Positions 30,043 through 31,920 of a stretch of DNA of 64,000 nt are shown here, piece by piece. Made by a program: the position numbers and the translations under genes. Below the pieces are notes generated by a model. It made no database searches and was not told where the DNA came from. It saw only the letters and a list, made by a program, of their open reading frames with translations. Source of the DNA: a virus; the IMG/VR virus record IMGVR_UViG_3300047160_020067, positions 1 through 64,000 of that record, one strand, 5' to 3'. Each line of letters starts with the position of its first letter. Within the stretch, counting starts at the first letter, position 1.

Positions 30043-30795
30043 TTAGAGTTTCGCGCACGGTCCATGGTTTTCGTGATCATCTTGGCTCGCGCCTCTTGCA
30101 TGGTTTTCGTTGTCGATGTGGTTCGCGTTCTCGGTCTGGTTTTCGCGTTTCCCACGGCAAAAGTCTTTGAAAAATGGTGTCCATTGTGCAGCGCCGCGTG
30201 ACGCTAATACAACGCCAAGCATAGGTACCCCGCCCATATAGCGGTACACTCGAATGATTTCTTTGGTAAAGTCAGTTGCCTCTTGGATTGCCACGACTCG
30301 CCCAATGGACACCGTCTGGAAAAATGGTGCAAGCGCTTGCTTCAACCCGAAGGGGTAGTTGCGAGCGCGTGTCTCCAGCTCCTGAGCGTCGTCTGCGTTG
30401 CGCCCATATGAGACGAAGACGGCAAGCACTCCGATCTTTGGCGCCAGCTTGCGCACGGTCCATAGTGTGTCTGATCCAACGACCTTGCAGAAGTCGAGAT
30501 TGGCAAAGTCGAAGCGCTCACGTCCGAATGCGTCGGTAACGTTGCCAAGATAGACGCGCTCGGCGCCGGCTTCGGCCGCCGCGCCAAGGTTTGCTTGCGC
30601 GGTTGGTCCGATATCAGCCGCTGTGATTTGTGGGCGCTTCAGCGAACGCCGGGCGCAGCTAATTTCCTCAGCGGGCTCGGGGCCAGCAAGCATGAGCACC
30701 TTCGGGTGCCGCTTAGTAATCAGCGTGCTGGCGTTGCGGTAGAGGTCTTCGCGGACCGCCCGCTTCGCCGCGGTGATTTTGGTAAAGGCGCTCAT
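30043..30795 (-). CDS. Class I SAM-dependent methyltransferase-like protein between TIGR array segments
   Basis: Rossmann pattern KVLMLAGP / ITAADI / YLGNV / FDFANLDFC; the last ~38 codons are translated array. Confidence 0.6.
   Translation of the reverse strand: MSAFTKITAAKRAVREDLYRNASTLITKRHPKVLMLAGPEPAEEISCARRSLKRPQITAADIGPTAQANLGAAAEAGAERVYLGNVTDAFGRERFDFANLDFCKVVGSDTLWTVRKLAPKIGVLAVFVSYGRNADDAQELETRARNYPFGLKQALAPFFQTVSIGRVVAIQEATDFTKEIIRVYRYMGGVPMLGVVLASRGAAQWTPFFKDFCRGKRENQTENANHIDNENHARGASQDDHENHGPCAKL
30047..30159 (-). ncRNA. TIGR-like guide array, distal segment (3 units)
   Basis: Minus strand: TGCCG tgggaaacg CGAAAACCA gaccgagaa CGCGAACCA catcgacaa CGAAAACCA tgcaagagg CGCGAGCCA agatgatca CGAAAACCA tggaccgtg CGCGAAACT. 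Confidence 0.88.
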
Positions 30796-30943
30796 AGCGC
30801 CGCCTCGTTGGTTTTCGCGGTGGTTGTGGCTCGCGCGACTGTGGTGGTTGGTGTAGCGGTTATGGCTTGCGTATCCCCGGTGGTTTTCGTCATTGTTATG
30901 GCTAGCGCCTCTTCGTTGGTTTTCGTCTTTCCCGTGGCTCGCA
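30796..30943 (-). ncRNA. TIGR-like guide array, central segment (4 units)
   Basis: Minus strand: TGCGAGCCA cgggaaaga CGAAAACCA acgaagagg CGCTAGCCA taacaatga CGAAAACCA ccggggata CGCAAGCCA taaccgcta CACCAACCA ccacagtcg CGCGAGCCA caaccaccg CGAAAACCA acgaggcgg CGCT. Confidence 0.92.
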
Positions 30944-30954
30944 TCTTCATTTCC

Positions 30955-31920
30955 TTATGCCGCGTGCCTGTGACCGAGGTACTGCTCCTGGTACGACTCA
31001 CGAATCGGAAGCCCTTCGAATGCCCGCCACTTCAGCCAGATGTCCAATAAAACCATCTTGACCATGTAGCGAAGCGCCGCGTTGTGCCGATGCCCATCGG
31101 ACTGACCCCATCCGGCGCTCGCCTTGCGGTTCTTGTAGTTGTCGTAGAGCCTGCGCCACTCTGTGCGAGTGTCTTCGCCTGTTTCCTCATTGATCTTGCC
31201 GCCTGCCTTGAGGAGGCAGGTCCCGAGTACGCCGATGAGTTTCGTGCGGAGGAAGGCGTTGTAATGTAGCGCTTCACCTGAGGTGGGACGCTCAGCGCGA
31301 CCGCTATCTACGAGTACAGACGTTGGTGCGACACTGCCTGCATGTGGGCATTTGATCTTCGCCTGCTTCGTGACGAAGTTGCCCTCGTCATCCTTCGCTT
31401 TGACGGCGCGTGCCTTCGGGTGCTCACCGTCTTCCTCGACGACGGTCCAGCACACCGAGCACCGTTTGCACGGCATCGGCGCGAGCCCAGCAAACCGCCA
31501 CATCTTGGACGGTGTGGTCTCTCGCGCTATGTCGAACTCGGAGAGTATGACGGCGGCGGATGCCACACCCAAGCCTCTATACTTGTCTTTGATATGCTGA
31601 TTGTAGAACGGAATGGTGTATAGATGCTTCTCCACATCCTCTAGGCACGTTTTTTCTAGGTTGCTGAGACTGTCGAGACGACCGTTGAGTGTCGCTTTGT
31701 CCTCGGAGCGTAGTTCGATCGTTGTCGCACGCGCCTTCTTACCTCCGTCTAGTTTTTTGTCCGAACGCCCACTAATCTGCATTCGGAGGAGTTGCACGTC
31801 GTAGAACATGCGCGTCTTTGCCTTAAGGGCGAGGCGCGATGGTGAGATCGCGTGTTTATCTTGGCTGTGGCTCGCGTTGCTGGGCTGGTTTTCGCTGTTG
31901 GTTTGACTGTTCTTGGACAT
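30955..31920 (-). CDS. tasA: TasA-like Nop-domain RNA-binding protein (related to the IS110 C-terminal domain, no RuvC/HNH)
   Basis: Coiled coil then RGLGVASAAVILSEFDI, PSKMWRFAGLAP, YNAFLRTKL, HRHNAALRYMVKMVLLDIWLKWRAFEGLP, YLGH; directly flanked by 36-nt dual-repeat arrays. Confidence 0.85.
   Translation of the reverse strand: MSKNSQTNSENQPSNASHSQDKHAISPSRLALKAKTRMFYDVQLLRMQISGRSDKKLDGGKKARATTIELRSEDKATLNGRLDSLSNLEKTCLEDVEKHLYTIPFYNQHIKDKYRGLGVASAAVILSEFDIARETTPSKMWRFAGLAPMPCKRCSVCWTVVEEDGEHPKARAVKAKDDEGNFVTKQAKIKCPHAGSVAPTSVLVDSGRAERPTSGEALHYNAFLRTKLIGVLGTCLLKAGGKINEETGEDTRTEWRRLYDNYKNRKASAGWGQSDGHRHNAALRYMVKMVLLDIWLKWRAFEGLPIRESYQEQYLGHRHAA
31859..31908 (-). ncRNA. TIGR-like unit(s) inside the 5' end of the tasA-like ORF
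   Basis: Minus strand: AGTCA aaccaacag CGAAAACCA gcccagcaa CGCGAGCCA cagccaaga. Confidence 0.75.

Follow-up and report, generated by a model that had tools for sequence, protein, structure and literature searches.

The locus described here raises the question of whether an enzyme-like gene that lies between guide arrays of a phage belongs to the RNA-guided system around it or is a passenger within it. The stretch analysed, referred to as the window, covers the initial 64 kb of an IMG/VR virus record (IMGVR_UViG_3300047160_020067) of 91.8 kb that is rated 100% complete. On its minus strand, tasA, the gene for the protein of a TIGR (tandem interspaced guide RNA) system, is followed by an open reading frame (ORF) of 250 amino acids (aa), and pieces of a TIGR array lie around and inside both genes. 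We conclude from structure prediction that the ORF is a real gene whose product has a class I S-adenosylmethionine (SAM)-methyltransferase fold and, judging from sequence comparisons, that the link between its family and TIGR arrays of a single repeat type is not accidental. Our favoured explanation, to which we give slightly less than an even chance, is that the ORF encodes a rare alternative accessory of TIGR-TasA in the slot otherwise held by the ParB-like TasParB, co-transcribed with the guides and acting with the TasA–guide complex, possibly as a guide-directed methyltransferase. The features on which the argument draws are as follows.

30043–30795, minus strand: 250-aa ORF, with the segments VLMLAGP, ITAADI, GNV and FDFANLDFC all present
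30160–30795, minus strand: methyltransferase-fold core, ORF residues 1–212 (AlphaFold2, Foldseek and VIA-align)
30043–30163, minus strand: array piece 1, at most three units, which double as coding sequence for the C-terminal tail of the ORF (residues 213–250); stop codon TAA at 30045–30043
30796–30951, minus strand: array piece 2, four edge-spacer-loop-spacer units from the tasA stop to the ORF start, with two open frames at 6% T
30803–30806, minus strand: GAGG, resembling a ribosome-binding site, in the last spacer and 7 nt ahead of the ATG; read from the sequence
30955–31920, minus strand: tasA, 321 aa, nuclease-less TIGR protein with a probable Nop domain, a Zn-ribbon-like insertion and the C-terminal end SYQEQYLGHRH
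31868–31905, minus strand: array piece 3, within the first 22 tasA codons: a loop repeat with first base 31894 and an edge repeat with first base 31876, translated as SENQPSNASHSQ

A methyltransferase fold between guide arrays

The AlphaFold2 model of the ORF, built on an alignment of its 57-member family, is confident (predicted local distance difference test (pLDDT) 94; predicted template modelling score 0.91) and has the strand order of class I methyltransferases. Its strands, at residues 32–36, 56–61, 80–83, 95–101, 121–129, 178–187 and 191–199, form a seven-strand Rossmann-like sheet in which strands 6 and 7 make a hairpin. Foldseek returned at least 500 matches to the model in the PDB at E ≤ 0.001, with methyltransferases throughout among the matches listed, and mostly methyltransferases in a viral library. 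The best VIA-align Z score was 14, with RlmI-like 1wxw, ChlM, Trm1, RlmO, HemK2 and TrmN at the top; no methyltransferase subfamily can be named, since about 2 Z spans the whole of the tied top 50 rows. With the solved folds of RlmI-like Tt1595 (1wxw), RlmO (4dmg), Trm1 (3axt) and HemK2 (6ped), the model shares the seven-strand sheet and the C-terminal hairpin (Z 12.9–14, root-mean-square deviation 2.6–3.5 Å over 152–188 residues), and it differs from them in having only 8–18% sequence identity and atypical motifs. Both residues looked for at the usual cofactor-site positions are present, the acidic residue that ends strand 2 (D61) and the conserved residue after strand 4 (D101); across the 57 family sequences D61 is kept in at least 90%, and G38 and D101 show no variation. 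The original prediction, which had read a 250-aa ORF with a class I methyltransferase pattern from the four segments listed above, is thus borne out by the model and by a check of its Foldseek matches in the PDB, those listed being likewise methyltransferases. At the sequence level, the ORF had no match in Pfam, PHROG, NCBIfam, PADLOC or the PDB sequences. Argonaute rows in the PDB sequence search (E 0.8) were discarded as noise, and an ESM Atlas lead (16% of one cluster, rank 22) to Pfam PF28273 (PP_RS20740) ended at a protein of unknown function.

The array has a 36-nt period: the pattern GGTTTTCG-N10-GGCTCGCG is found 5 times where 0.81 would be expected, a count attained by 0 of 100 shuffles. 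On the gene strand, repeats of the sequence CGAAAACCA (labelled loop) alternate with CGCGAGCCA (labelled edge), with 9-nt spacers between them; which of the two is edge and which is loop is an assumption. The locus thereby shows the hallmarks of a dual-repeat TIGR array, namely two alternating repeats of 8–12 nt, spacers of about 9 nt and a 36-nt unit. The last edge repeat of array piece 2 is degenerate (CGCTATGAG) and contains the ATG of the ORF (30795–30793). Array pieces 2 and 1 flank the fold core, and the placement proposed originally, with the ORF between array segments beside tasA, GAGG in the last spacer and the ATG in an edge repeat, is therefore correct in each detail. The same is true of the frame: after the tasA stop (TAA), 53 in-frame codons free of stops lead up to the ORF. 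The strand has a T content of 6–9%, and simple arithmetic from composition puts the proportion of such stretches that are open by chance at about 64% at 6% T, which agrees with the caveat attached to the prediction that open frames arise easily on a T-poor strand. Because T is so scarce, the in-frame layout of tasA and the ORF carries no weight. Compared with the phage's own 91.8-kb genome, the guide pairs gave no match at two or fewer mismatches, and their matches at three mismatches are at chance level.

The TasA of the window matches NCBIfam NF052498 (TIGR_Tas_endo) over residues 36–299 at E 4.4e-26 and 92 bits, just below the cutoff of 100, and PHROG 4285 at E 2.6e-27. Several of its 104 homologues match Pfam PF02371, and the homologue alignment to the window TasA begins at about residue 25. 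C154, C157, C191 and Y310 are invariant among the 41 closest relatives. The conserved C-terminal Y...H stretch is found in the window TasA, and its residues may have a role in handling tigRNA; an obvious N-domain of the Nop5 type, for docking fibrillarin, appears to be missing. The Cys-rich insertion (31335–31480, residues ~150–195) is conserved in the clade of this TasA, and no Cys-rich segment is present in the TasA proteins read from ParB-linked loci and from the loci L002 and L003.

Guide arrays in frame within the gene family

A HMMER search of 1.84 billion protein representatives (E ≤ 1e-3) defined the family of 57 members, the window's own protein included; most come from Logan or ENA assemblies, and the best relative of the ORF has E 1.3e-19 and 34% identity. 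Ten members (P0004, P0005, P0008, P0009, P0014, P0016, P0026, P0027, P0033 and P0040) carry long inserts with a 12-residue period, ETTxxxER[AV]xxx. The inserts sit after strand 5, in P0033 also between strands 3 and 4, and in several members in the C-terminal tail as well. Back-translated, the ETT...ER[AV] pattern was found at 12 loci in IMG/VR, and at 8 of these it is part of a 36-nt array that immediately follows a TasA gene. The TasA proteins of those 8 loci are 30–33% identical to that of the window (51% over a partial match in L013), and the repeats, GACAACCA and GCGAGCCA, are of the same type as the window's, read in another frame. Because the pattern is found in genuine arrays following tasA, we take the inserts to be translated TIGR arrays.

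The free-standing array of L003 has 11 stops per 262 codons in the ETT...ER[AV] frame, whereas the gene-embedded arrays are open for about 80 to 190 codons over the ten members, with P0014 the longest; given the stops in the free array, the embedded ones look selected for an open frame. By motif count, 11 of the 57 family members (window protein counted) contain array-coded peptide; among the 77 proteins of a Dam-like family taken as control there is none, and among 104 TasA proteins there is one. The ten array-holding members form one clade with a Shimodaira–Hasegawa-like approximate likelihood ratio support of 100 (quick IQ-TREE run). The window protein falls outside this clade, so there are at least two distinct arrangements of gene and array: unlike the in-fold inserts of the clade, the window protein reads into the array at the 3′ end of its gene. 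In a model of P0005, both halves form an intact core (pLDDT >90) and the array-coded insert is disordered (pLDDT ~40). Many of the other members have a C-terminal (I/L)AAWKAVxTR motif (17 strict pattern matches, and more variants by eye) that neither the window protein nor the array clade has. As far as sequences can tell, guide arrays kept in frame within an enzyme gene that is not a tas gene represent a clear case of dual coding.

Individual members add detail. P0027 has array-coded peptide in two frames (DNH...RASQ and ETT...ERA) and a third block in the C-terminal tail, and P0033 has arrays in two separate loops of the fold. Searches for the DNA of family members found none for alignment A2 in viral contigs, for P0061 in genome contigs or for alignment A3 in metagenome contigs.

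Comparison with known TIGR loci and box C/D particles

Arrays are split into several pieces in most of the 75 IMG/VR TasA loci (±8 kb) that we compared. At least 11 of these have a ParB-like gene of ~225–258 aa beside or between array pieces, confirmed for three by PHROG 1033; L054, L085 and L062 exemplify the order tasA, array, parB, array. Such an architecture, with the ParB-like TasParB, has been described (Faure et al. 2025, PMC12045711, section 44, fig. S14). TasParB loci resemble the window in their nuclease-less TasA and in a 36-nt dual-repeat array whose pieces precede, separate and follow tasA and a partner of ~230 aa. They differ in that the partner in the window has a methyltransferase fold and not that of ParB, with no match to Pfam ParB or PHROG 1033, and belongs to a family that also carries arrays within its coding sequences. 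TIGR arrays in frame within tas genes, mapping to disordered loops, have been reported too (Xu et al. 2026, bioRxiv 10.64898/2026.09.09.750476, sections 5 and 11). The guide units are likewise in coding sequence with the frame unbroken at the 5′ end of tasA, in the 3′ tail of the ORF and in the internal loop of its homologues; here, however, the host gene is a separate methyltransferase-like gene and not tas. The word ‘methyltransferase’ is absent from that preprint (bioRxiv 10.64898/2026.09.09.750476), and in the searchable TIGR literature it occurs only in discussion of fibrillarin; no methyltransferase linked to TIGR was found there. According to the Science paper, TasA is without clear associations except for TasParB.

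Published work likens Nop-domain proteins to box C/D particles (PMC12045711). In common with the box C/D small nucleolar ribonucleoprotein (Nop5/Nop56-58, L7Ae and fibrillarin), the locus encodes together a probable Nop-domain protein, a dual-guide RNA and a protein with a class I methyltransferase fold. It differs in that the ORF has no fibrillarin family match, TasA has no evident domain for docking fibrillarin and published TasA targets DNA. Pfam Fibrillarin did not match the ORF at E ≤ 1, and the top 50 VIA-align rows, all of which are tied, do not include fibrillarin. The parallel with fibrillarin that had been drawn originally is not supported at the sequence level.

Weighing the explanations

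Several findings argue against a role for the protein with TasA, or against methyl transfer by it. The family profile matched none of the 75 TasA loci, the closest relatives at 47–49% identity included, and none of 50 whole TasA phage records (16 of them at least 90% complete), from which it follows that TasA has no need of this family. Other genes sandwiched between array pieces include a cytidylyltransferase (L033), a DPPY methylase-like gene (L015 and L019) and genes of unknown function; because unrelated genes occupy such positions too, a position between array pieces proves little. That the array clade also neighbours tasA is hinted at by the repeat type and by a single coincidence at 7482 nt, the longest contig both for P0026 and for P0105, a TasA 46% identical to that of the window (both are Logan proteins). 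Within the protein, the motif I loop after strand 1 reads G-x-x-P-x-x-E in place of GxGxG, with only G38 invariant and P41 and E44 kept in at least 90%. Motif IV is NLDFC (family consensus NLDLC), unlike both the DPPY and the PCQ types of DNA methylase. No curated methyltransferase family in Pfam was matched, and N6_N4_Mtase, MethyltransfD12 and DNA_methylase were among those without a match. The linkage of homologues to Tas or TIGR loci, on which the original prediction was to stand or fall, came out divided: ten homologues have in-frame arrays inside the fold, whereas no TasA fusion exists among the 57 members (the longest has 463 aa) and the loci and records above lack the family. Its alternative, that the array is an integron-like capture site, gains some support from the unrelated genes between array pieces in other phages.

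The protein could then be an independent phage methyltransferase, for example in anti-restriction or another self-serving modification, with no tie to TasA; arrays would have spread into its gene by repeat-mediated recombination and persisted as harmless wherever they were in frame. Methyltransferases are frequent phage cargo. Between array pieces in other phages lie ParB-like genes, the cytidylyltransferase, a different methylase-like gene of the DPPY type (L015 and L019) and genes of unknown function, the ORF family is missing from the 75 TasA loci and arrays are found within tas genes as well (bioRxiv 10.64898/2026.09.09.750476, section 5). However, one insertion held open in place across a deep clade, together with the separate arrangement in the window, amounts to more linkage than would be expected of a bystander; the Dam-like controls have no arrays (0/77), and the array-linked members have lost the usual C-terminal motif of the family. 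We consider this explanation somewhat unlikely. Rather more doubtful is a protein that acts on the RNA of the system, methylating tigRNA, its precursor or guide-chosen cellular RNA as fibrillarin does, or an embedded array that chiefly regulates its own host gene. The nearest structures do lean to RNA methyltransferases (RlmI-like 1wxw and 3c0k, RlmO, Trm1, TrmN, Trm14 and TlyA, at Z 12.5–14 in rows tied within ~1.5 Z), guides would be excised from the enzyme's own mRNA, and the analogy of Nop-domain proteins with box C/D particles (PMC12045711) points the same way. On the other side stand the missing fibrillarin family match and the published finding that Tas proteins target DNA, TasR being inactive on RNA substrates (PMC12045711); nothing in this analysis speaks for RNA binding by the protein.

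It is more improbable still that the fold serves without methyl transfer, as a SAM-binding sensor, a SAM-depleting protein or a structural adaptor. The atypical motif I with its single conserved glycine, the non-canonical motif IV, the lack of a curated family match and the loss of C103 in several members of the array clade (P0026, P0033 and P0040) would all fit such a protein, whereas the fold is complete and confidently predicted, and G38, D61 and D101, located where cofactor residues usually sit, vary little or not at all among the 57 sequences, divergent as these are. An accessory that acts with the TasA–guide complex in the TasParB slot is the explanation that we tentatively prefer.

Operon context and other TasA loci

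The genes lie in a closely packed, putative leftward operon on the minus strand that starts at ~32700 and comprises small ORFs, tasA, the 250-aa ORF and the genes of a MoxR-like AAA ATPase and of a DUF2201 metallopeptidase/VWA protein. Between the promoter-like site listed below and 29800, no terminator-like site was found on the gene strand; a search of the locus against Rfam gave no match, and no synteny of the window locus with its relatives was found.

32701–32728, minus strand: promoter-like site, a consensus match only and weak; the sole one upstream of the operon on the gene strand (1 found against 1.5 expected)
28876–30024, minus strand: MoxR-like AAA ATPase (Pfam AAA_5, E 1.6e-5), starting 18 nt past the stop of the 250-aa ORF in the same putative operon; given for context only

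The pair of AAA ATPase and DUF2201 metallopeptidase/VWA genes (27611–30024, minus strand) recurs in only one other TasA locus, L048, where it lies away from tasA. Elsewhere in the window, two paralogous minus-strand genes (15968–16091 and 23985–24222) have Ala-rich AAYAAADAA-like repeats with a 36-nt DNA period, each following a common ‘KAIEAAEAWCRNE’ segment. Both periodic stretches were considered as guide arrays and rejected, as they encode Ala-rich protein repeats.

The loci L015 and L019, which hold the closest TasA at 49% identity, have the DPPY gene (3040–3810, within 1930–3885) between an array of ~24 units and one of 2 units. The gene lies ~4 kb upstream of tasA with a terminase-like gene intervening; it has a weak match to PHROG 56 (E 1.4e-4), and one relative is named a DNA-adenine methylase. 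No embedded arrays were found in its family, and profile comparison shows no kinship with the family of the ORF, an idea that we therefore rejected. In L002, a fusion of ParB_N and an N6_N4 DNA methylase (4159–5466) is encoded 2 kb upstream of the TasA gene, and the TasParB of L049 matches, weakly and through its ParB part, a PHROG of ParB–methylase fusions. Because of this fusion and this match, TasParB may derive from ParB–methylase fusions. In L078, a TasA match (917–1951; best segment 65% identity) is apparently split by array pieces at 1432–1773, with more arrays on either side.

Implications for RNA-guided systems of phages

TasA is an RNA-guided DNA binder and repressor (bioRxiv 10.64898/2026.09.09.750476). 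If the protein is an accessory of the TasA–guide complex, tasA, the arrays and the ORF would be transcribed jointly as a leftward operon, and TasA dimers with 36-nt guides would, like the other TasA proteins in published work, bind DNA sites of 18 bp. The methyltransferase-like protein would then act at or near the sites bound by TasA, and methylation of the nucleic acid that is bound or displaced would be its simplest mode of action. Guide maturation would compete with synthesis of the enzyme because the guides are excised from the transcript that encodes it. Carried to its end, this would be natural RNA-guided methylation, in which tigRNA-loaded TasA brings the methyltransferase-like protein to guide-chosen 18-bp sites where DNA (or RNA) is methylated, a phage counterpart of box C/D RNA and fibrillarin in which guide arrays in the enzyme's frame couple guide release to enzyme synthesis. 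We regard this full scheme as unlikely.

Surveys of arrays that are centred on tas would miss in-frame arrays of the kind found in this family. TIGR-TasA has no nuclease, and the ParB-like protein is its sole published partner; a second, enzymatic partner, if true, would indicate the swapping of effectors around one guide-binding core. Were that partner a methyltransferase, the kinship of TIGR systems with box C/D particles would become directly testable, and a compact route to targeted methylation, free of a protospacer-adjacent motif, would be at hand.

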